64,000 bases of DNA from Pseudanabaenaceae cyanobacterium (GTDB lineage Bacteria > Cyanobacteriota > Cyanobacteriia > Pseudanabaenales > Pseudanabaenaceae), in assembly GCA_046295715.1 (NCBI GenBank), contig JBKBMU010000005.1, positions 80,755 through 144,754 of the forward strand, in the 5' to 3' direction. The notes beneath the pieces were generated by a model. It searched no databases and was not told the origin of the DNA. It was given only the letters and a program-made list of their open reading frames with translations. Each line of letters starts with the position of its first letter. Position 1 is the stretch's first letter. Positions 287 to 46,141 of the stretch are shown one piece after another. A program made the translations under genes and the position numbers.

Positions 287-1882
287 TTACTTAATAACCC
301 CCTGTCTGACTAAAAGTTGATACATCATTGCTGCTACCTCAGCTCTGGTGGCAGGGCGGTTCGGCTCAAACACCTTGGGATCAGGGTGATTGACCACTAG
401 TTGATTGACTTGGGCGGTGGCAATGGCTTGCAGGGCATAGTTGGGGATGTCACTGGCATCATTGAATACCTCCTTGAGGCGGGCAGGATCGCCCCCATTG
501 AGCTTGTTACCACTGACAAGAGCGACCAGCACCTGCACTCTGGGGATATTGTCAGCGGGACGGAATTCTCCACTGGGGAAGCCAGACATGAACCCTGTGG
601 CAAAGGCTTGCCCGATCACCCCATGCCCCCAGAAAGTATCGGGGACATCACTAAAGGTTTGAACGGGACGCACCTTAGGTTTTTGGGGGAAAGCGGCGGC
701 TAGAATAGCAGCAAATTGGGCACGGGTTACGGGTTGTTCGGGACGGAATGTACCATCTTCAAAACCTTTGATAATATTTCGTTGCGCCAGAGCTATGATC
801 TGCCGTTCTGCCCAGTGTCCACGCACATCAGCTAAGCCTTGATTGGCAGGGGTAGGGGCCGTGGGGGGGGTAATAGCAACATCGGCGGGGATGAGATCGA
901 CAGTGCCGACTACCTTTTTGCTGTCTAACTGGTTGCCCACAGCAACTTGCACGGCGCGGGAAGCATTGTTGATGTCTACCCTATTATTCTCAAAAATGTT
1001 CCTGCCCGGTTGTGCCACCGTGCCCATATTTACCACAGGATTGCCGTTGCGATCGGGCAGGATCACAATTCCTGCCTCTTGATTGTTGGCGATCAAATTG
1101 CCCCGAATTGTGGGGGTAGCCAAATTATTAATAATAATGCCCCCGCGATTATTGACAATGCGATTATTGCTCACTTCCACACTCGATCGCTGGGAAATGA
1201 CAATGGCAAAGCCAGTATTATCAAAGGTGTTGCCTGTGATTACGCCACTACTGGATCCGACCGCAGAAATTCCATTCGCACCATTGCCCTGAAAAATATT
1301 GCCAGTGATATCAGCGCGGGTGGTGCCCGTCATAAAAACCCCGTCATGCACACTGTTGATCAGGGTATTATTCACCACAGCCGCATTCTGGGCGGACTCT
1401 AACCAGAGGGCGTAGCCCCGACGATTGGGGTTAGTAACCGTTACCCCCTCGACACGGGCTTGATCCCCTACCAAGATCGCAATATTTTGATCGGCAAAGG
1501 TCGGACTCATGAACCGACCGCCACCTGTAATCACAATACCTGCTCCATTGTTACTGGTATCCCCCCTGAGAATCACACCCTTGGGTAGCCTGATCGGGAA
1601 AGTTTCACCCGTCTCCTGACTATAGGTGCCCTGCACCAGCTGGATGATTGTACCCGCTTGAGCGCGTTGCACAGCGGCAGTGATCGTCCGTAAAGGTTGC
1701 CCTTGACTGCCGTTGTTATTATCATTGCCCAAGGGAGATACAAAAATCATACTTGCCCCTTGTTTGGGTTGAGCCGTAAGGGCAGAGTTGGGATTAGTTG
1801 TCAGCAAAGGACTGGCTACCAAGGCAAATTGGGGAGCGATTAGCTCCAGCGTCAGCATTACCGCAATATGTGTTTTAACCAT
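287..1882 (-). CDS. secreted right-handed parallel beta-helix (DUF1565-like) protein with C-terminal SLH domains
   Basis: 531-aa ORF with an N-terminal signal-like segment. It has repeated xNNxIxxNxxxGI beta-helix turns. The C-terminal S-layer-homology motifs are VRGHWAERQIIALAQRNIIKGFEDGTFRPEQPVTRAQFA, DTFWGHGVIGQA..GF..G.FRP and IPNYALQAIA. Confidence 0.75.
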   Translation of the reverse strand: MVKTHIAVMLTLELIAPQFALVASPLLTTNPNSALTAQPKQGASMIFVSPLGNDNNNGSQGQPLRTITAAVQRAQAGTIIQLVQGTYSQETGETFPIRLPKGVILRGDTSNNGAGIVITGGGRFMSPTFADQNIAILVGDQARVEGVTVTNPNRRGYALWLESAQNAAVVNNTLINSVHDGVFMTGTTRADITGNIFQGNGANGISAVGSSSGVITGNTFDNTGFAIVISQRSSVEVSNNRIVNNRGGIIINNLATPTIRGNLIANNQEAGIVILPDRNGNPVVNMGTVAQPGRNIFENNRVDINNASRAVQVAVGNQLDSKKVVGTVDLIPADVAITPPTAPTPANQGLADVRGHWAERQIIALAQRNIIKGFEDGTFRPEQPVTRAQFAAILAAAFPQKPKVRPVQTFSDVPDTFWGHGVIGQAFATGFMSGFPSGEFRPADNIPRVQVLVALVSGNKLNGGDPARLKEVFNDASDIPNYALQAIATAQVNQLVVNHPDPKVFEPNRPATRAEVAAMMYQLLVRQGVIK

Positions 1883-9914: not shown

Positions 9915-11111
9915 ATGGCTATGTCAACCACACAGTTAAACCTTGGCGCAGGCGCTGACGCTCAAATGGTCAGGGATGCCACGCTCAATGTCCTTCTGCC
10001 AGCCATGCGGGTTATGAGCCGATCGACAGGTATCCTGCATGTAGAGACCAAGCACCATCATTGGAAAATCCTACTCCAGGGGAATGGCATGGTGCTGATG
10101 GAGTTGGAAGGCGCAGTAATTCCCACCCTTGTCAGTAAGTTTGGTGCCAAAGGGATCAAGTTCGGCCGTATCCCTGAGTTAGAGGTCAAACAGCATAACC
10201 GCCCCTACTGCTACGCCTTTGTGCATCAGGTCTATAAACGCTTTGCCAAACAGACTGAAGAAGTGCTGTTGGATGTAATCAACGAAAACTTTTTAGCCCT
10301 GCACCTTGAAGATAGGTTTACTTTTACTTGGTTTCCCACCAGCGATCTAGTCGTAGATTTGCCTGCCCACAACATTGCTGAGCTGGAAAAAGGGATCATG
10401 CCCGAAGTGCGCCGCTGGCAGACTGAGTTTGAGTATGTCAAGCATCCCTTCCAGCGCATCCAGTTACTAGATGCAGCGGCCCTGTTGGCACGGGTCGGCA
10501 ACGACAACTTCCCATTATTTGCCAAGGTAACTACAGGTCAGCACCGCATTACTGAGATCGCCGAAAACTTCAAACAACCCCTATATCGCACGGCAGTATT
10601 GCTCGATCGCCTGGCACAGAAGCAAATTATCTCGGTACTGCCCTTACCAGAGGTACAACATACACCAGTAACTGCTCCTGAGGATAGTCACCGCAGCAGC
10701 CACAGCAACGAACCCAAGATATTTATTGTGGACGACTCCACCTTACTGTTGAATCAATTCCGCAGTTTGCTGGAGGGGTGGGGCTATCAGGTGGAGGTGA
10801 CGGACGATCCCACCCAAGCCACCCAACTGATCATGCAGTACCGCCCCAGTGTGGTGTTTGCCGATATCAATATGCCCAGTTTGAATGGCTTTGAGTTAAT
10901 CAAACAGATTCGCCGACATCCCGATATGCAAAACCTGCCTTTGGTGTTGGTAACTGGGGAAAACAACATGACCAATAGTTTTCGGGCAAGGTGGGCAAAC
11001 TGCCGCTTTATTGCCAAAGCCAAGTCTCCCTCGGATACTGAACGGTTTCGGGATGAATTAAGAGAATTGTTGCGGGAACTGGCACCCCTGTCCACAGACA
11101 CCTTAGTTTAG
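9915..11111 (+). CDS. PatA-type response regulator 2 (tandem paralog of the preceding gene)
   Basis: 398 aa and collinear with RR1. Examples: HHWKILLQGNG vs HSWRLLIWGG; FPLFAKVTTGQHRITEIAENFKQ vs FLPLFAKVTNGKFRITEIADEFKQ. The REC domain contains IFIVDDS...ADINMPSLNGFELIKQIR. Confidence 0.8.
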   Translation: MAMSTTQLNLGAGADAQMVRDATLNVLLPAMRVMSRSTGILHVETKHHHWKILLQGNGMVLMELEGAVIPTLVSKFGAKGIKFGRIPELEVKQHNRPYCYAFVHQVYKRFAKQTEEVLLDVINENFLALHLEDRFTFTWFPTSDLVVDLPAHNIAELEKGIMPEVRRWQTEFEYVKHPFQRIQLLDAAALLARVGNDNFPLFAKVTTGQHRITEIAENFKQPLYRTAVLLDRLAQKQIISVLPLPEVQHTPVTAPEDSHRSSHSNEPKIFIVDDSTLLLNQFRSLLEGWGYQVEVTDDPTQATQLIMQYRPSVVFADINMPSLNGFELIKQIRRHPDMQNLPLVLVTGENNMTNSFRARWANCRFIAKAKSPSDTERFRDELRELLRELAPLSTDTLV

Positions 11112-12002: not shown

Positions 12003-15000
12003 ATGGCAGTTACCACAAAAACCCAAAAAGTTAAGTCCCAAACTCTTAGCCCCAGTCCAGCAAAAACTAGGGGCAGTGGGGGTTCGATCGGGACAGGGTT
12101 ACTGCTGGCTGTCTGTGGGAGTGCGGTGTTAGGAGTGGGGACGCTGGGATTTGTGCTTTACCAAGAGCTGTGGAAGGGTGCACAGCAGGAAATGGAAGGG
12201 CTGGTCAGGGCGGGGTCCCTACTGCTGGCAGAAGTAAAGTCACCAAACTCAGAAGCTAGGCCACTAAGCCAACTAGTCAGTCAAAAGGGTCAGGGCTACT
12301 TGGTATTAGTTGATGAAGAGGGCCAGATTTTGTCAGCTTCTGGCAGTCAAAGTGGGGAGGTGTCAGGGATCCCAGAACTGCGGGCTGTGTGGCAAGCAAG
12401 GGGTGCAAAAATTAGTGATACCGCCCAAGTAGGTGGGAATCTGGTAGCTTACCGCCAGTTACAACTGGGGGAACAAAAAGCATGGCTGTTTGGGGTGCTC
12501 CCTGAAGCAGAGGTGCGCGATCGGGTACTGTGGCAGACCCTGGGGGTGACGGTCGGTGTGGCTCTGTTGTTGGGGCTGGTGGTGCTGTGGTTTGTGAATT
12601 ATCTCAACCGCCGCTTGCAAAAAATTATGGATGAGTGCCAACAACTGGCACAGGCCCGGGGCGGTGTGGTTGAAGGGCAGAATAGTGGTGGAGATGAGCT
12701 GGATCGCCTAGAAACTGTTTTCCGTCAGTTAGTGGCGCAGATTGTCCAGCATGAAGAGCGCATCAGAGAAGAGACGACTAGGTTAGTCCAAAACCAAGAA
12801 CGACAGCGCATTGCCCAAGAACTGCAACAGGAACAGGAAGCCAGTGAACAGGAAGTGGGTTTACTGCTGGAGGTGGTCTCTTCCATTGAAGAGGGAGACT
12901 TGACCGTAGAAGCGGAGGTGAGCGATCGGGCCACTGGTCTGGTGGCAGACACCCTGAACCGTCTGCGGGAGCGGTTAGCCGAGACAATTGCGCGGGTGTT
13001 GGCGACTGCGCAGCAGGTGGCAATAGGGGCGGAAGAACTGCAAAGCCTAGCGCGCACTGTAGCGGCAAACACGGTAGAACAGGCGCAATCGGTGGCACAG
13101 GGGCGGGCACTGACGGAACAGGTGGCCAACTCTGCCCAAAGTTCAGCGGATCAGGTGAAAATTGCCAACCGGGCGCTCCAAGAGGTACAAAAGACGGTGG
13201 AATCAGCCCAAGCTGCGATTACTAAGCTGACAGAAGGGATCGCTGTTCTGCAGAAGGGATCAGCCCAGATTGTGCAGAGGATGAAAACCCTGGGGGAGTT
13301 TGTGGGTTTGGCGGAACAATTTGTGCAGGATCAGAGCCAGATTGCATCTTTGACCCAAGTGCTGGCGATCAACGCCACCCTAGTTGCCGCCCGTGCCGCT
13401 GAACAAAGAGACCCGAAACAGTTTATCGGGGTGGCGCGGGAATTTGAGACGATCGCAGAGCAGGTAAACGCCTTGGCGACGCAGACCAACCAAGGCTTGA
13501 CTGTACTGCGCCAACGCACAGGGCAGATTCAGGCGGTGGTGTCAGCGGTGGATACGGAAGTGCAGAGCTTAGGCGGTCTGGTGGCAGGCTTTACGGCTGG
13601 GGTAGAGCAGTCTGCTACTGCCTTCCAAAGTGTGCGCCAAGTAACGGAGCAGGTGGTAAAAGTGGGGCAGAGTGTTACCAGCTCCTCCTTGGAAATTGCC
13701 GATGCGGCCGTGTCCACCGCTAGGTATATCAGTGAAATTGCTACCCTCGCTGAACAAACTGCTCAATTGACGGCAACTGCCCGCCAACAGGCAGAAACCA
13801 TGGGAGCGATCGCCCAAGAACTCCTAACAGGGATTCGCTTCTTCCGTTTGCCAGAGGCGATGCTACCGAGTTTGGAAACAGCGATCGCTACACCGACTAC
13901 GGTGGATACCGCTGCCAGAGAGGAGTTGGAACTACTAGACTTTGAAGAAGAGGAATTCAGCGATATCACTGACTTTGCTGACCTAGCTGAAGCAGAAGAA
14001 ATGAGCGCACTAGACGGACAGGTAGCTACTGCTGAATGGGCTGACACCGAAGATAAGGAAGGTCCCAATACCTTTGCTGAAGTCCTGATGGATCGGGACT
14101 TGATGGAAATGGAAGAAGCAGAATTAGCATCACCTGCGCCCGAACTGCACCCAGAGGAGGCAAGGGCAGTTTCTACACCCTCCTATATAGGAGTGTCAGT
14201 GAGTGAGACAGATGAGGATAGCTTTGGGGATGTCTTACTGGATGAAGACTTACAGGAAATGGAAGCAGAAGTCAATGGGGCAATAGCTGATGCTGACAAA
14301 CCCTTGGCAGTTGCGCCGATGGCTGACCAGTGGGCAGAGACATCAACCAGTGAGTTAGAAGAGTTGGAGTACATACCAGAGGCAAGCTCTGAAGAAGTAG
14401 CTCTGCAGACTGAACCTACTGTGTATGAAGATAGTTTTGCTGATGTCCCGCTCCCAGCTACCCCAGAAGAGGAAGACTGGTTAGATGTGCCCATAGATGA
14501 CCTGCCGCCTCCACCAAATCAAGGGCTCGTAGATACTACCGAGCCAGATGTAGAAGATGACTTTGCGGCAGTGATGTTGGCAAGTGATGAAGATAGTTCT
14601 AACACCTTTGGTGAAGTGCTGGCTGACCCCGATTTGATTGAAATGGAACGGGAACAGGTAGCCATGCCTACGCCTATGGCTGAAGAATTTGAGGACTTAG
14701 TAATCGCAGAAGAAGCCTACCCAGAGGAAGTGGCTCCGGAGTTAGATTTTGACCAGATCGCTGACCTTGCAGAAACCACAGCAGATGACCTAGCTGACTT
14801 CGTTGTACCTGTAGCAGTAGATGCTGGTGATGCAGTGGTGGAAGTAGCAGATGTGCCCCTAGAGGACACTCTGCAAGAGCCTTTTGATATTCCTACCCAA
14901 ATTTTGGCGGCGTCGGTCATGCCAGAACCATCTAGTTCTATTCTGGTGGCAGAGTTGGCGGCAGACACTGGAGAATCAATGGATGACTTAGATTTGGTGG

Positions 15001-15272
15001 TGGCAGAGGAAGCAGAAATTCCCATGAATCAAGATTTTGAGGCTCTGGTTTCCGCTTTGGATGCAGAAGCAGGGATGCAAGCTGAGGTGGGAGCAGAACT
15101 AGGCGAAGAGGTAAGTCAGGGAAATATAGAACAGTTCCTACTGCAAATTCCAACCCCAGAACTTACAGCTAAGCCAGAAACTGAAGAGCTAGAAGAATGC
15201 TTGCCCCTCTTGAGTGAGGAAGAGAATACAACTCCCTTTGCTTTTGATTTTGACCTCATGAATGAAGAGTGA
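12003..15272 (+). CDS. methyl-accepting chemotaxis protein with a ~125-aa extracytoplasmic loop and a ~475-aa acidic C-terminal extension
   Basis: 1089 aa. Two TM segments lie at about aa 30-55 and 180-200. The MCP signalling hairpin is LTQVLAINATLVAARAAEQRDPKQFIGVAREFETIAEQVNALATQTNQG. After about aa 615 comes a D/E-rich tail carrying repeated SF[GA][DE]VL.D.DL.EME motifs. Confidence 0.85.
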   Translation: MAVTTKTQKVKSQTLSPSPAKTRGSGGSIGTGLLLAVCGSAVLGVGTLGFVLYQELWKGAQQEMEGLVRAGSLLLAEVKSPNSEARPLSQLVSQKGQGYLVLVDEEGQILSASGSQSGEVSGIPELRAVWQARGAKISDTAQVGGNLVAYRQLQLGEQKAWLFGVLPEAEVRDRVLWQTLGVTVGVALLLGLVVLWFVNYLNRRLQKIMDECQQLAQARGGVVEGQNSGGDELDRLETVFRQLVAQIVQHEERIREETTRLVQNQERQRIAQELQQEQEASEQEVGLLLEVVSSIEEGDLTVEAEVSDRATGLVADTLNRLRERLAETIARVLATAQQVAIGAEELQSLARTVAANTVEQAQSVAQGRALTEQVANSAQSSADQVKIANRALQEVQKTVESAQAAITKLTEGIAVLQKGSAQIVQRMKTLGEFVGLAEQFVQDQSQIASLTQVLAINATLVAARAAEQRDPKQFIGVAREFETIAEQVNALATQTNQGLTVLRQRTGQIQAVVSAVDTEVQSLGGLVAGFTAGVEQSATAFQSVRQVTEQVVKVGQSVTSSSLEIADAAVSTARYISEIATLAEQTAQLTATARQQAETMGAIAQELLTGIRFFRLPEAMLPSLETAIATPTTVDTAAREELELLDFEEEEFSDITDFADLAEAEEMSALDGQVATAEWADTEDKEGPNTFAEVLMDRDLMEMEEAELASPAPELHPEEARAVSTPSYIGVSVSETDEDSFGDVLLDEDLQEMEAEVNGAIADADKPLAVAPMADQWAETSTSELEELEYIPEASSEEVALQTEPTVYEDSFADVPLPATPEEEDWLDVPIDDLPPPPNQGLVDTTEPDVEDDFAAVMLASDEDSSNTFGEVLADPDLIEMEREQVAMPTPMAEEFEDLVIAEEAYPEEVAPELDFDQIADLAETTADDLADFVVPVAVDAGDAVVEVADVPLEDTLQEPFDIPTQILAASVMPEPSSSILVAELAADTGESMDDLDLVVAEEAEIPMNQDFEALVSALDAEAGMQAEVGAELGEEVSQGNIEQFLLQIPTPELTAKPETEELEECLPLLSEEENTTPFAFDFDLMNEE

Positions 15273-20093: not shown

Positions 20094-21209
20094 CTATACA
20101 GCCAAGTCAAATAGACTCATACTGGCTTCCTGCTTCATCGAAGTCTCAAAAGCTACGCTCTCAAGGGGTATTACTTCTCCACAAGCTTCAATTCCCCCAG
20201 AGCTTGGGGTATTTTTGTAATTCAATAGATTTAGACTCCCATTCAAGTCTCTATTTATGGAAATGCCACAATGAGAACAGTTGTAAACTCGTTCTTTTAG
20301 CGGCATCTTTTGCCGATGCCCGCAGTTAGAGCATATTTGGCTGGAGGGGTAAAACCTGTCCACAACAGTTAATTTACTCCCATACCAGGCGCATGCCGGC
20401 GAAATTCAAAGAAACCACAATCGGCTATGGCATTTGCCAACCGGTGGTTCTTAAGCATACCCGATAATTCAGGTCTTCAATGATCACCTCGCCGTGGTTC
20501 TTAGCTAAATAAGTGGTGATATCCATCCTCATATCGGATACTCTCTTGTAGGCTCTGGCTAACCTGACTCTAGCTTTCTTTCTGTTGTTGGATTTAATTT
20601 GCTTTTTACTTAGCCTCCTTTGTAATCGTGATAGTTTCTTCTTGGCTTTCCTATAGGGTTTAGGATTAGGAAAGACTTTACCATTAGAGCAAGTTACTAA
20701 GACGTTTATACCTATATCTACGCCTATTTTATCTGCCTGATTGACAGTGGGTTTATGTTCTATTTCGTACTTAAAGCTGATGTACCACTTATCAGCTCTT
20801 TTACTGATAGTTACATTCTTTGGCGAAACTGAGGGTAAAAGTTCATCACAGGTTAGCCACCCAAATATCGGGACTCTAATTTTGTTTCCTGATATTTTAA
20901 TAACACCCTCCAAGTAAAAACTATCCCTTTTGCCTTTCTTTTGTATGTTGGTTTCTTGCAGTGTTTGTGTTTCCGCCAATTCTTGAAAACTCGTTCTAAA
21001 TTTCTTAGAGCTTCTTGAGGAGCACATTTGCTAACCTCGTAGTACCACCTGTTCACAGGTTTAACCTCTGCGACCAGTTTCTTGTGCAAATCTATCCCAC
21101 TGGGGACTTTCTGTTTATTCTCTAGTGCCGCCAAACAAACATCCAAACCCCAGTTATAGGCATGTCTCGCAACTCCGGCATGTTTCGCCGCAAAAGCCTG
21201 AGACTAGTC
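20094..21209 (-). pseudogene. tnpB: tnpB (IS200/IS605-IS607 accessory OrfB, RNA-guided-nuclease family), multiple frameshifts
   Basis: One TnpB reading is spread over three frames. The pieces are FAAKHAGVARHAYNWGL...QEALRNLERVFKNW (track 20853..21146), KKGKRDSFYLEG...IGVDIGINVLVT...EVIIEDLN (20425..21027) and the zinc-ribbon end FYPSSQICSNCGHRQKMPLKERVYNCSHCGISINRDLNGSLNL (20094..20363). The N-terminal ~20 aa are lost. Confidence 0.85.
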
Positions 21210-21476: not shown

Positions 21477-22796
21477 ATGAAAATCAGTGTGTTTCTGGGG
21501 AGTGCAATCGCCATCGCCATGGCGAATCCTGCATGGGCAAGGCCGATCTATGTGCATCCGCAAACGGGGAATGACCAGACGGGGGATGGTTCCCCTGCCC
21601 AACCATTTCGTACCATCAGCCGTGCCCTCCAAGCCAGCACAGGCGAAACAGTCATTCAACTGGCAGATGGGGTTTACAGTGAAGAACAGTTTCCCTTGGT
21701 GCTATCTCGCCAGACCATTGTCCAAGGCAATATCACCAACCAAGGCGCAAGTGTGGTGATCAAAGGAGGGGGCAATTTTCGTTCCCTGTTTTTGGGACAG
21801 CAAAACACAGCGATCGTCCTCCAAGATCAGGCGCAACTGCGGGGGGTTACAGTTACCAATCCTCAACCTAGAGGCTTTGGCGTGTGGATCGAGCGGGGCA
21901 GTCCCACCCTCAGCTACAGCACCCTCACCGCCAACAGCCAAGACGGGATCAGCATCACGGGCAGAGCAGGGGGCACTATCACTCACAATCTGGTGCGTGC
22001 CAATTCTGCCAACGGGATCACGATCGATGGTTTAGCTACCCCCCAAGTTAAACATAATCTCATCACTCAGAATGTTTTTGGGATCAATATCCGCCAAAAT
22101 AGCGCACCCCAACTATTCTCTAACCAAATCACCAATCACCAAGACGGGGTCATGATTCAGGGGCAGTCCCGTCCTCGCCTGCGCCAAAATACCATCACCC
22201 ACAATCAGGGCACAGGGGTCATGATCCTAGGGCAAGCCATCCCCGACCTAGGCACAGCCGACAACTCTGGTAACAATGTTTTCAGCGACAATAAAACCGC
22301 CGACATTCGCAACCAGACCAGTCAAACCATAGTCGCCAGTGGCAATCAATTTAGCACACCCAAGCTCATCGGCAGTATTGAGCTGGCTGGTACAGCAATC
22401 GCCCCTCTGCCCAGCCCCCCCGCCCATGGGAATAATTCCATAGTGGTCTCCCTCACAGGGCAACCGCCCAAACTGCCTACTGACATTTCCCCTCATCTCC
22501 CCCCCATCACCACCACTCCCCCCAAAGGCGATCCCGTCAATCAGCCGATCGTGATCCGCCCCCCCCGTCCGATCGCGGTAATTACCCAACCCCCCCGTTG
22601 GCGAGTAGTGGTAACCCTTGTTACCCCTGAAGTGCTCCAGCAGGTACGCACCCTATTTCCTGAAGCTTTTGCCTCCAACCGCGCAGGCAGAAGCGTAATC
22701 CAGATCGGTGCCTACAGTAACCAAAACATTGCCCTTGAACGACTACAGCAATTAACCCAAATGGGCTTACCCGCTGAAATGGAAACTATTCAATAG
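21477..22796 (+). CDS. secreted parallel beta-helix (DUF1565-like) protein with Pro-rich linker and C-terminal SPOR-like domain
   Basis: 439 aa with a signal peptide (MKISVFLGSAIAIAMANPAWA). The N-domain is paralogous to ORF 287..1882 (QPFRTISRALQASTGETVIQLADGVYSEE vs QPLRTITAAVQRAQAGTIIQLVQGTYSQE). The C-terminus RWRVVVTLV...IQIGAYSNQNIALERLQQLTQMGLPAEM has a SPOR-like pattern. Confidence 0.7.
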   Translation: MKISVFLGSAIAIAMANPAWARPIYVHPQTGNDQTGDGSPAQPFRTISRALQASTGETVIQLADGVYSEEQFPLVLSRQTIVQGNITNQGASVVIKGGGNFRSLFLGQQNTAIVLQDQAQLRGVTVTNPQPRGFGVWIERGSPTLSYSTLTANSQDGISITGRAGGTITHNLVRANSANGITIDGLATPQVKHNLITQNVFGINIRQNSAPQLFSNQITNHQDGVMIQGQSRPRLRQNTITHNQGTGVMILGQAIPDLGTADNSGNNVFSDNKTADIRNQTSQTIVASGNQFSTPKLIGSIELAGTAIAPLPSPPAHGNNSIVVSLTGQPPKLPTDISPHLPPITTTPPKGDPVNQPIVIRPPRPIAVITQPPRWRVVVTLVTPEVLQQVRTLFPEAFASNRAGRSVIQIGAYSNQNIALERLQQLTQMGLPAEMETIQ

Positions 22797-43660: not shown

Positions 43661-44317
43661 TCAACTCAATTCACTGGCAGTGGCGACCAGCGGCGGTCGG
43701 ATGCAGAGATAGATCAAGACTCCCACCAAAGGAAAAGCAGAAACCAGCGTGAATACATTGTCCCGATCGCCCCAGCCTCTGCGGCTTAGATCATCTTTCA
43801 ACAGCCAAGGCACAAGGGCACAGAGTAAACAAAAATCAAGGCTCATGACATGAATGAATCTATTAGTTTTCCATTGCAGGAGAAAATCCTGCCAATCACC
43901 AAAGCGCAGACCATAGACCATTAGAAAGATCCCCGCTACTGCAATCACAAAGCCTGTAATTCTGGAGTCGAGAATTTTCACTGCCCAGCTCTTTTCACCT
44001 ACAAATTGAGGGTTCTCTTCTCTGAGAGCTAAATAGGGGAGTAGGGCAAACGCACCCACAAAGAATGAAGCAACCACAAACAACCACGCAGGGATTTTCT
44101 GCCCTTTGCCATCGCTGACTAGGACGCAGGCATAAGCACAGGGCAACACTCCCATCAAATTAAACAGAGCTACGATCGCTGGGTTGATCCCTGCTACATC
44201 TCCCTGCACTAGCTTCGTAATTAACTCCAAAGTATTGGGAGTATCGGGGGGAGCAAACCCAAAAGCATAAGTAATAAACAAAGCCCATACTAGCCAAAAC
44301 CCAACTTTGATCTCCAT
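43661..44317 (-). CDS. polytopic membrane protein (about 6 TM), hypothetical
   Basis: 218-aa hydrophobic ORF. It is the last gene of a tightly packed 3-gene minus-strand operon. Confidence 0.55.
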   Translation of the reverse strand: MEIKVGFWLVWALFITYAFGFAPPDTPNTLELITKLVQGDVAGINPAIVALFNLMGVLPCAYACVLVSDGKGQKIPAWLFVVASFFVGAFALLPYLALREENPQFVGEKSWAVKILDSRITGFVIAVAGIFLMVYGLRFGDWQDFLLQWKTNRFIHVMSLDFCLLCALVPWLLKDDLSRRGWGDRDNVFTLVSAFPLVGVLIYLCIRPPLVATASELS

Positions 44318-44321
44318 GGCC

Positions 44322-45035
44322 CTATCTCCGCCCTGTAGCTATTTTAGCCAGAGTTGCCCCCGTAATTGCCCCATAGATGGGCAAAAACACTGCAAACGCT
44401 AGCCACAGTGCCAGCAAGCCACCTGTACCCCTCAGGATTAACAACATGGCGATCGCAGTAATGATTACCAGCCCGCCATGCAAAACCACCCACCACAGGG
44501 AATGGGGCAAATCCCTTAGCATCAACAGCCATTGCAGACCAGCCAGCACTAGCCCCGCCAGCAGCACACCCCCCAGCCCCTGCAAAAACACTCCCCAATA
44601 TTCGGCAATATTGAGCTTGACCCTGCCCCCTTCTTCCACCTCGACTAGGCCACTGATCGGGGTGTGGGCAAATTCACTCAGGCTAAGAACCAACAGCACC
44701 CAGCCCAAACAAGACACCACTAACCACCACCACGATCGCCTGATCAACCGTCGCATCAATAGTCTTTGTAAGAGCAATATAGATAAAGCTATGGGTAGTG
44801 CCCCCATCCCTAGGGCACTGCGCAAAATACAGCCCAAGTTGCCCGATCCCCCCTGACACAGCCCCACACTGACTGTCCAATTGCCAACAAAGTATAGACC
44901 GATATAACCCGCAGGCACAGCCAAGACACTGCCGATCCCAAAGCCAACCACGATCGCCAAAAACCAACGCCACCAGATACCGACCGCAGTCAAAGGTTTC
45001 GGGACTTGGGTATTGGGTAATTGAGTTTCAGTCAT
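44322..45035 (-). CDS. polytopic membrane protein (6-7 TM), hypothetical
   Basis: 237-aa hydrophobic ORF whose start overlaps the upstream stop by 4 nt. Confidence 0.55.
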   Translation of the reverse strand: MTETQLPNTQVPKPLTAVGIWWRWFLAIVVGFGIGSVLAVPAGYIGLYFVGNWTVSVGLCQGGSGNLGCILRSALGMGALPIALSILLLQRLLMRRLIRRSWWWLVVSCLGWVLLVLSLSEFAHTPISGLVEVEEGGRVKLNIAEYWGVFLQGLGGVLLAGLVLAGLQWLLMLRDLPHSLWWVVLHGGLVIITAIAMLLILRGTGGLLALWLAFAVFLPIYGAITGATLAKIATGRR

Positions 45036-46141
45036 GTTACAGTGAGCACTTGATCCAAAATTTGCGTAACTACAGTAGCAATACAGGCATCAACGATACA
45101 GGCGGCTAAATTAGGATCGCTGACGGCACTATAACCTCTTAGACTAAAACAAATAGACTGTAGTTTATGATTTTTAAGATAACAAGTATAGGCGATTTCT
45201 GTTCTGTGTCGATCGTTACTATAGCCAAATCCCATTTTAGATAGAACTAAAGCATGGGGACATACCCTGTCCACATAGCGGGCATTGTCCTTAGCCAAAG
45301 CAGTTACCAGTAACCGCAGATACTCCCACTGTCCCAGTGGTAATCTAGAATTAGTAGGTAAATGATCATGCCAGCCAATTAATGACATAATTCTAGTTAA
45401 ATCGTAGGCAGACAGATAATTTTTGCCTGTGCCTAGGTGATGGCTAGTTGTACTGTAATTTAATAGAACTTGACCAGTTTGGGGATCGATTAGTTGTGGT
45501 TGTTCTATCCATGGCAATTCCCCATACAGGCCCGTGAACTCTAAAGCTGAATTACCTGTAATCCCCTGTAGCCAAGCATTTAGTTCAGCAGGACTAAAAA
45601 ACTGCTTTAACATACCTGCTAGGGCATTAGAACTCATTTGGGGCTCGCTATAGTCCATGATGCGATCGTAAATTTGCCTGAGGGAGTAACCTCCTATTTG
45701 CCAATCTTCAGGTGGAGTAATGGGGCAATAACTGTCAATCTTAGTTAATAATGCTATCATTGGTACTACTTTAGTAGTGCTCCACATTTGCACTGGTACA
45801 AGGGCATTTTTGCCCCACCATTGGCAGTATAATTGCCCCTGCACAAAATATCCCACACAAACACAAGCCTCGGTAATTTCTATTGGTAGGAATTCTAATT
45901 TACTCTCATCAATGAGGGGAATCTGCGCTAACTCTGGATAAATTTGGGCATCACTTGGGGGCAGGTTACTATCTAATTTACTTTGCCATCTCTGCCACAC
46001 TTGTGCTAATTCAGTCTCGGAAAATTTGCGCCCTCGGTCTAACCACAACAGGCGATCGGCGTGGCAACCCTGCGCTAATTCCTCGGCAAGAATTGACTGA
46101 AATATCTTGTCGTAGTTCATCTCGGGGCGTTGGTTTGGCAT
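45032..46141 (-). CDS. hypothetical protein with serine beta-lactamase/PBP-like motif order (SxxK, SxN, KxG)
   Basis: 369 aa. S121-T-T-K, S170-S-N and K302-M-G occur in the order and approximate spacing of class A-type serine hydrolases. This is motif-level evidence only. Confidence 0.35.
   Translation of the reverse strand: MPNQRPEMNYDKIFQSILAEELAQGCHADRLLWLDRGRKFSETELAQVWQRWQSKLDSNLPPSDAQIYPELAQIPLIDESKLEFLPIEITEACVCVGYFVQGQLYCQWWGKNALVPVQMWSTTKVVPMIALLTKIDSYCPITPPEDWQIGGYSLRQIYDRIMDYSEPQMSSNALAGMLKQFFSPAELNAWLQGITGNSALEFTGLYGELPWIEQPQLIDPQTGQVLLNYSTTSHHLGTGKNYLSAYDLTRIMSLIGWHDHLPTNSRLPLGQWEYLRLLVTALAKDNARYVDRVCPHALVLSKMGFGYSNDRHRTEIAYTCYLKNHKLQSICFSLRGYSAVSDPNLAACIVDACIATVVTQILDQVLTVT

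Follow-up and report, generated by a model that had tools for sequence, protein, structure and literature searches.

A long polyanionic tail with short repeated and conserved motifs on a cyanobacterial Tax/PilJ-type chemoreceptor

What might a chemoreceptor do with a C-terminal tail of several hundred acidic residues? Chemoreceptor arrays are generally taken to follow a single, tightly packed plan in which the C-terminal arms are no longer than a few dozen residues. The question is raised by a 64,000-nucleotide stretch of a Pseudanabaenaceae cyanobacterium genome (contig JBKBMU010000005.1; the whole stretch is called the window below), in which the first of two methyl-accepting chemotaxis protein (MCP) genes of a chemosensory cluster encodes a receptor, MCP1, that continues for 474 amino acids (aa) beyond its signalling domain. 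Receptors of this kind carry 150-1,230 polyanionic disordered residues per subunit, in a pilus pathway without methylation enzymes in the window, and it may be asked both how such receptors pack and what the short conserved islands within their tails recruit. The explanation that we favour, tentatively and with somewhat less than even confidence, is that the tail is a multivalent tether, disordered and polyanionic, which carries short docking motifs. The anatomy of the tail, its predicted disorder, selection on the islands, their distribution in the lineage and the lack of CheR/CheB in the window are results of the analysis; that the islands bind anything, and which partner they would bind, is inferred.

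MCP1 is a methyl-accepting chemotaxis protein, and its cluster is a cyanobacterial Tax/Pil-type chemosensory cluster with PatA-type response regulators, CheY, CheW, MCPs and a hybrid CheA all present (Table 1). At 100% identity MCP1 matches P0001, annotated as 'MAG: methyl-accepting chemotaxis protein [Pseudanabaenaceae cyanobacterium]', and its 843 homologues at E<=1e-10 are annotated as MCP, PilJ or PixJ (PilJ or PixJ in JGI). Its Pfam MCPsignal match is weak (24 bits, under the gathering score of 34.6), and the residues of the hairpin tip are invariant in a 62-sequence alignment (A1). We ran AlphaFold2 (AF2) on full-length MCP1 with the 62-sequence alignment, and the sensor, HAMP and hairpin were modelled at a confidence (pLDDT) of about 80-90, the long helical hairpin of aa 310-611 at about 85. 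The signalling domain ends family-wide in FFRLP, whose five residues (F613, F614, R615, L616, P617) vary hardly or not at all in A1; MCP2 proteins and many homologues end 10-40 aa past it.

Beyond FFRLP the composition changes sharply. E makes up 17.9% of the tail, D 11.0%, K 0.6% and R 0.8%, for a net charge of -130, compared with 11% D+E and 9% K+R in the core. An earlier note on this DNA, written from the sequence, had described an acidic, apparently disordered tail of ~475 aa; both points hold, at 474 aa, and the start it gave at 13850 was two bases out of frame, the frame beginning at 13848. In the AF2 model the pLDDT is <50 for aa 627-1008 and 1028-1089, and the sole confident element is a helix at aa 1010-1032, with the block 1011-1020 at pLDDT 79. 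The hydropathy scan found no hydrophobic 19-mer in the tail, which should therefore be cytoplasmic. A homology search with the tail alone returned nothing, not even the identical P0001, and a local phmmer comparison of the tail with 119 homologues gave no similarity, even between sister clades; such tail-wide negatives say little, because the composition correction of HMMER removes acidic tails. Tail motifs were accordingly searched by profile hidden Markov models (HMMs) with null2 off and with shuffled-tail controls. A PDB sequence search with the MCP1 tail and NCBIfam scans of its segments gave no match.

Within this tail, a motif of 16-18 residues is repeated. To judge the copies, we scored ungapped 16-mers by BLOSUM62 against a null of 300 composition-preserving shuffles of the tail, in which the best score had a mean of 35.1, a standard deviation of 3.5 and a maximum of 48. 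The strong copies NTFAEVLMDRDLMEME (aa 689), DSFGDVLLDEDLQEME (aa 739) and NTFGEVLADPDLIEME (aa 867) gave pairwise scores of 59, 52 and 51, far above chance. Three of the four copies counted in the earlier note thus stand, the end of the first moving from 14120 to 14123, whereas the degenerate one at aa 810-826 is at chance level: it scores 31, reaches 0.8 bits by the motif HMM, and matches only in its first six residues, DSFADV. The consensus is (D/N)(S/T)-F-(G/A)-(D/E)-V-L, then D-x-D-L-x-E-M-E. Since the hydrophobic moment is high for each half (0.27-0.48), and since the third strong copy (aa 867-884) has a Pro separating the motif halves, the 18-mer reads as bipartite, F-x-x-V-L followed by D-L-x-E-M-E. 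A single amphipathic helix was ruled out by the low moment over all 18 residues (0.05-0.15).

The copies do not look like recent duplicates. Their DNA is 57-77% identical, and where two copies share an amino acid they use different codons in 2/9, 4/12 and 6/11 cases (22-55%). The 16-aa core of the motif is 56-75% identical between copies, the 20-aa flanks 0-20% against a random expectation of 9.6%, and the four spacers between copies showed no Smith-Waterman similarity above shuffles. The sharply bounded conserved core, the unrelated flanks and the divergence at synonymous sites point to purifying selection on a short motif, and recent duplication or gene conversion is disfavoured because the copies have diverged at the DNA level.

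Does the same motif occur in related receptors? When an 18-mer HMM was run against the 119 homologues, the best foreign match reached 2.3 bits, as did the best match in shuffled tails. Degenerate DNA encoding F[GA][DE]V[LF]xDxD[LF]xEME, searched as a pattern, gave 0 matches in the genome or metagenome collection; tblastn-confirmed scans of the 185,579-species genome collection and the JGI metagenome collection likewise found no relatives of the MCP1 tail. Absence of the motif from the tailed orthologues, which the earlier note would have taken as a refutation, is thus what is seen in all of them, as far as the data reach. Instead, the nearest clade (P0002-P0007; about 72% core identity to the query, tails of 277-477 aa) carries a different unit of ~36 aa, DDLELADF.LAL.P..E...VDFDDLELDD, in 2-4 copies per protein and 15 in total in the six proteins, at 39-72 bits and within otherwise unalignable sequence. 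The HMM of this repeat gave 0.6 bits against the query tail, under the shuffle top of 5.6, and hhalign of the 18-mer with the 36-aa repeat gave P=0.31. By eye, aa 926-957 of the query (TADDLADFVVPVAVDAGDAVVEVADVPLEDTL) resemble a decayed 36-aa copy, a likeness that is not supported.

What the query does share with P0002-P0007 is three islands, namely a proximal stretch with T(V/Y)D, a PMN box and a C-terminal box; the tail middle is unalignable, and the remaining roughly 350 aa are not conserved. The PMN box has the form E-x-(E/D)-(I/L)-PMN-x-(D/E)-F-(D/E)-ALV, scores 43-53 bits in all 7 proteins of the clade (P0001-P0007), had no HMM match outside it, and coincides with the one tail helix that AF2 models confidently. 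A possible second PMN box at aa 890-905 was rejected, as its score of 35 equals the null mean and its -0.8 bits are not significant. The C-terminal box ends in TPF-x-(I/F)-D-(F/S) across the query and its sister clade, and the extreme C-terminus of MCP1 (aa 1077-1089) is TPFAFDFDLMNEE. A profile of the PMN and C-terminal boxes, searched against 1.84 billion representatives, gave 5 matches, all of them MCP1 tails of this clade or fragments thereof, and the module is therefore not shared with another protein family. The earlier note missed the PMN/EFEALV helix (aa 1002-1032), the C-terminal box, and the lineage-wide occurrence of giant acidic tails.

The proximal island may have a longer history. 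The mini-motif [TS][LVIY]D[IVTLA], which is TVDT in the query, stands 12-25 aa past FRLP in 19/33 short-tailed homologues (shuffles: mean 1.8, maximum 6), and in P0085 and P0095 it lies at the very C-terminus (TVDTNFD.IF). Some tails therefore went in ahead of it and others were added behind it, and it could be an ancestral C-terminal peptide of the receptor family.

We next set the tail against the lineage, in a survey of the best 120 of the 843 homologues, of which 118 could be anchored at FRLP. An acidic tail of 148-1,230 aa is present in 71/118: 21 have tails of 148-477 aa and 50, nearly all from Pseudanabaena, tails of 845-1230 aa (mean 1024, standard deviation 87), while the other 47 end <=60 aa past FRLP. 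All 71 tails have 19-34% D+E and 1-7% K+R, and the net charge falls as low as -318. Giant acidic tails are thus a lineage-wide trait of MCP1 and not peculiar to this genome. They are confined to it: MCP2 is tail-less throughout, its length differences lying in the N-terminal sensor domains. In Pseudanabaena, roughly 15-20 conserved islands, including YGFADNLLDSLMDESD, EFDFSAFD and TARAEIDDFLSG, stand among ~1000 variable residues. Across the lineage, tail chemistry is thus constant, sequence and length turn over fast, and the short islands are clade-specific. Our searches of the literature on PilJ, HmpD, other MCPs and Pseudanabaena chemotaxis found no description of an acidic or disordered tail.

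The Pseudanabaena MCP1 proteins also have a hydrophobic island, LGLVVPAIAVAAA..ISQS, ~45 aa past the signalling domain (P0033 aa 816-834, P0072 aa 774-792, P0042 aa 816-834 and P0045 aa 776-794, from loci L003 and L010), which is lacking in the query and in P0002. Its 19-mer hydropathy is 1.55-2.35, compared with 2.0-2.7 for true transmembrane (TM) helices. Possibly the island forms a third TM helix; the acidic tail of ~950 aa would then lie in the periplasm.

The constancy of composition argues for a physical role of the spacer, and one alternative makes that role the whole function. The tail would then be a polyanionic brush or spacer working by charge, excluded volume and cation binding, not by specific docking. 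With six arms of -130 each, a trimer of dimers would have the gap from membrane to baseplate filled with tail, and packing could be limited or loosened; the arms could also repel thylakoids or other anionic surfaces, or make packing respond to ionic strength, Mg2+ or Ca2+, with the repeats as by-products or weak self-association 'stickers'. Assuming a 12-nm hexagonal lattice for the array, we estimate that six 474-aa arms (~310 kDa per trimer of dimers) take up ~20% of the available volume, and 1000-aa tails >45%, at which the canonical tight packing looks hard to keep. The brush fits composition kept across 71 tails of widely varying sequence and length (148-1230 aa), the lack of tail-to-tail similarity by phmmer and the low pLDDT of nearly the whole tail, and leaves unexplained the sharp islands, i.e. 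the 18-mers, the PMN helix, the C-terminal box and the ~15-20 islands of Pseudanabaena. As a full account we consider it possible, if on balance unlikely; as a spacer to which motifs are added, it is compatible with the tether that we favour.

Could the tail be without function altogether? A low-complexity expansion by slippage or duplication in a purine-rich region, with the repeats as its youngest duplicates, would agree with the extreme variation in tail length, with tail-less orthologues in the same cluster, with an 18-mer private to one protein, and with duplication that is evidently active, as shown by near-identical long duplications within P0002. It sits badly with tails that are kept in 71/118 homologues, with the narrow length and fixed composition of the ~50 Pseudanabaena tails, and with islands and a conserved extreme C-terminus, from which it is clear that the frame has been kept intact over its full length. 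The motif copies, moreover, are old at synonymous sites and conserved at the protein level amid unrelated flanks. We regard such an expansion as very doubtful.

In the explanation that we favour, the tail would be a cytoplasmic, disordered, polyanionic arm on the membrane-proximal end of the hairpin of a Tax/PilJ-type receptor controlling type IV pili. It would evolve through internal duplication and rapid divergence, such that short hydrophobic-acidic islands alone survive: here the three private bipartite copies, the amphipathic helix PMN-x-(D/E)-F-(D/E)-ALV, and the TPFxxDF box at the C-terminus. These islands may act as low-affinity docking sites, concentrating a soluble pathway partner beside the receptor array, while the acidic spacer would hold the arm extended and off the membrane. 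Specific contacts are favoured because the islands look selected. The docking logic is further supported by the sister clade, which repeats the same design with a different motif, and by the PMN helix and C-terminal box, which have been kept across the clade while the rest of the tail diverged. If true, a docking scaffold on the receptor would offer a handle on adaptation, signal termination and the localisation of PatA or CheY in Tax/Hmp systems. Sister lineages with the same kind of tail and different repeats are also a clean natural case of short-motif turnover.

Several observations weigh against this explanation. The 18-mer is private to MCP1 of this genome, so that its conservation across species cannot be shown; as the motif is in no other protein, selection on it is deduced from paralogous copies within one protein. 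The 18-mers are unstructured in the AF2 model (pLDDT 32-43). Tail-less orthologues occur within the same gene cluster and tail length differs roughly 8-fold among homologues, so the core pathway can do without the tail. No gene was found to co-occur with tail presence in L001, L003-L006 and L009-L012, and no partner emerged from gene context. In an AF2 fusion of the cluster CheY with tail aa 860-1089, a test akin to the 18-mer co-folding that the earlier note had suggested, no docking signal was seen, with CheY at pLDDT 92-97, the tail at 36-62, and the PMN helix below its pLDDT in the full-length model; this was a weak test, of an unphosphorylated protein, with no alignment for the tail and with pLDDT as the read-out. 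The proposal that the repeats are docking motifs is thus borne out in part, by sharp boundaries, diverged codons and unrelated spacers, and not by tailed orthologues or by a partner.

Two candidate partners were examined and set aside. The divergent 192-aa protein named in the earlier note has a pI of 5.8 and so is not basic, is absent from the related loci beside their clusters, and belongs to no Pfam or NCBIfam family. A conserved open reading frame (ORF) of ~140 aa lies directly 3' of cheA in L004 (18379-18807), L005 (19429-19869), L006 (18745-19158) and L011 (18978-19403), with no Pfam match and 37-39% pairwise identity, and is absent from the window, L001, L009, L003 and L012. It was considered as a gene anticorrelated with the tail and rejected, since ORF and tail occur together in L005 and L011 and are both missing from L012.

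The gene order of the cluster is alike in L001, L003, L004, L006, L009, L011 and L012; L005 departs from it in being without the upstream response regulators and CheW. In L010 (Pseudanabaena biceps, P0042), the cluster ends after MCP1, with no adjacent MCP2 or CheA and with a Band_7 gene next.

A core, a linker and a peptide have a precedent in receptors of the NWETF class (PMC7390727). The hairpin of an MCP has its C-terminus close to the membrane, and it is from there that Tar and Tsr extend their NWETF arm; the class is defined by last five residues of the form xZxxZ, with Z being F, W or Y (PMC7390727). By analogy, the MCP1 tail would work most like this pentapeptide tether, yet it is not a member of the class. 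Both are disordered arms from the membrane-proximal C-terminal end of the hairpin, both keep a short element of acidic and aromatic residues at the terminus or close to it, and for both a local concentration of the partner is presumed. The MCP1 arm has the unstructured linker of the class by pLDDT, but it is 474 aa long, and as much as 1230 aa in relatives, where the class has about 35, is strongly polyanionic, has internal repeated motifs, has no W, and closes with a box that is not xZxxZ. CheR and CheB Pfam domains are absent from all ORFs >=150 aa in the cluster and the 64-kb window, in line with what the earlier note had said of the cluster.

Might it nevertheless be a classical NWETF-type tether, whose CheR and CheB genes lie in another part of the genome? 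The linker plus an aromatic/acidic C-terminal box would suit this, and such pentapeptides are usually acidic (PMC7390727). However, MCP1 ends in LMNEE, and the sister clade in, e.g., VEENP, VEEKD or LEEKY, none of which fits a terminal xZxxZ. Together with the missing W, the internal position of the 18-mers, the lack of CheR and CheB in the 64 kb, and a linker 13x longer than the roughly 35 aa of Tar/Tsr, this makes a classical tether extremely unlikely.

A layout of this kind is also found in FtsZ, which has a folded core, a disordered linker whose length and sequence are hypervariable, and a short conserved terminal docking peptide. MCP1 is alike in its order of core, linker and terminal peptide; the protein and its partners are unrelated, and the FtsZ linker, unlike the MCP1 tail, is no polyanion with internal repeats.

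A more specific idea for the partner comes from the Pseudanabaena islands. In it, the islands would be analogous to the EIDAL peptide of FliM and the C-terminal peptide of CheZ, holding CheY-like or PatA-type regulators at the array through their REC domains; such docking would replace a missing CheA P2 or serve as a phosphate-sink scaffold. EIDAL is an established CheY-binding motif (PMC6946799), and Synechocystis has no known CheY phosphatase (PMC5812497). Like those peptides, the islands are short acidic amphipathic peptides in disordered regions of chemotaxis proteins; unlike them, they belong to a receptor, whereas FliM is a motor switch protein and CheZ a phosphatase. E. coli FliM begins MGDSILSQAEIDALLNG and CheZ ends ASQDQVDDLLDSLGF (both read from the genome), and the Pseudanabaena tails, which conserve TARAEIDDFLSG near the C-terminus, match the former in 6/9 residues (AEIDDFLSG with AEIDALLNG) and the latter in 6/7 (DNLLDSL with DDLLDSL). 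A loose E[IF][DE].[FL][LV] pattern occurs in 53/71 tails compared with 2.2 in shuffles, and YGFADNLLDSLMDESD is conserved in 36 Pseudanabaena tails compared with 0.1 in shuffles. In the query clade the predicted helix has SEFDALVAEL / QDFEALVSAL, with QDFEALV of the query matching the EIDAL / CheZ-C type at 3/6 identical positions plus two conservative substitutions. An hhalign comparison of the 18-mer with the Pseudanabaena LLDSL island, over 16 columns, gave P=0.012, uncorrected for three comparisons, and no P2 (CheY-binding) domain was found by Pfam in the cluster CheA.

Nonetheless, we consider REC docking improbable. Scans of the query tail with position-specific scoring matrices of the LLDSL and EIDDFL islands were not significant above shuffles (P=0.15 and 0.90), the PMN-box HMM did not detect the Pseudanabaena box, and the CheY-tail fusion, weak as it was, gave no gain in tail confidence. 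The likeness is limited to peptides of 6-9 residues in a very acidic background, and if the possible third TM segment does span the membrane, the Pseudanabaena islands would be periplasmic and beyond the reach of CheY. A PDB sequence search with the LLDSL island gave no match. Bolder still, and quite improbable in our view, is that the giant polyanionic arms (0.15-1.2 kaa) of Pseudanabaenaceae PilJ/TaxD-type receptors form an undescribed class of multivalent scaffolds, bearing FliM-N-like and CheZ-C-like REC-binding peptides and capturing, concentrating or sequestering CheY/PatA regulators. If true, docking and signal shaping, which in other bacteria fall to separate proteins, would be supplied by the receptor in a pilus pathway without CheR, CheB, CheZ or CheA-P2, and a non-canonical, loosened array architecture would be forced.

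Table 1. Features of MCP1, its tail and its gene cluster. Nucleotide positions are those of the window.
Feature	Residues or length	Position	Strand	Remarks and basis
Two PatA-type response regulators	422 and 398 aa	8564-9832 and 9915-11111	+	REC domain C-terminal
CheY-like protein	125 aa	11158-11535	+	
CheW	145 aa	11538-11975	+	
MCP1 gene	1089 aa	12003..15272	+	continuous ORF; fifth gene of co-directional cluster
MCP1 layout				2 TM helices, short periplasmic domain, HAMP, MCP signalling hairpin, tail
FFRLP	aa 613-617	13839..13853	+	family-wide signalling-domain end; marks tail start
Acidic disordered tail	aa 616-1089, 474 aa	13848..15269	+	composition, AF2
TVDT	aa 633-636	13899..13910	+	mini-motif [TS][LVIY]D[IVTLA]
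Motif copy 1, NTFAEVLMDRDLMEMEEAE	aa 689-707	14067..14123	+	BLOSUM62 scores, HMM
Motif copy 2, DSFGDVLLDEDLQEMEAE	aa 739-756	14217..14270	+	BLOSUM62 scores, HMM
Partial copy, DSFADVPLPATPEEEDW	aa 810-826	14430..14480	+	first half alone matches; not above chance alone
Third strong copy (fourth in the earlier note), NTFGEVLADPDLIEMERE	aa 867-884	14601..14654	+	BLOSUM62 scores, HMM
Possible degenerate second PMN copy, TPMAEEFEDLVIAEEA	aa 890-905	14670..14717	+	likeness by eye
PMN box, EEAEIPMNQDFEALVSALDAEA, plus AF2 helix	aa 1002-1023; helix aa 1010-1032	15006..15098	+	alignment, HMM, AF2
C-terminal box, LEECLPLLSEEENTTPFAFDFDLMNEE	aa 1063-1089	15189..15269	+	T, P, F, D invariant across clade
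MCP2	460 aa	15262-16644	+	stops at FRLPA, tail-less; start codon overlaps MCP1 end
Hybrid CheA	1137 aa	16619-20032	+	two Hpt domains, HATPase_c, REC at C-terminus

The cluster encodes four REC domains. Clusters of the Tax/Pix/Hmp type, such as Synechocystis tax1-3 and Nostoc hmp/ptx, control type IV pili (PMC12288463, PMC5812497). The present cluster resembles them in its order of PatA-type response regulator, CheY, CheW, MCP, MCP' and hybrid CheA-REC, and differs in its two PatA-type regulators, its CheA with two Hpt domains and its long acidic receptor tail, which the searched literature on those systems does not mention. The order of MCP followed by MCP' probably matches that of Synechocystis tax1 and tax2. 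The two Hpt domains of CheA belong to tandem modules of ~270 aa each, the second of which (from ~aa 280) mirrors the first almost motif by motif. The core of MCP1 (12003-13847) is 616 aa long, about 120-130 aa shorter than the 732-745 aa of P0002-P0006, and its periplasmic domain is just ~130 aa, without the Pfam dCache_1 match present in relatives.

Directly after cheA, the minus strand (20094-21146) has three ORF fragments, of 89, 200 and 97 aa. The 200-aa ORF (20425-21027) matches the IS605 OrfB-type transposase family PF01385, and the fragments at the 3' end of the operon look like a decayed insertion element. Further away, at 43661-46141 on the minus strand, three consecutive ORFs of 218, 237 and 369 aa match no Pfam family at E<=1e-5. 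The region is flanked by two DUF1565 / right-handed beta-helix proteins (287-1882, minus strand, and 21477-22796, plus strand), one of which bears SLH domains and is probably located at the cell surface.

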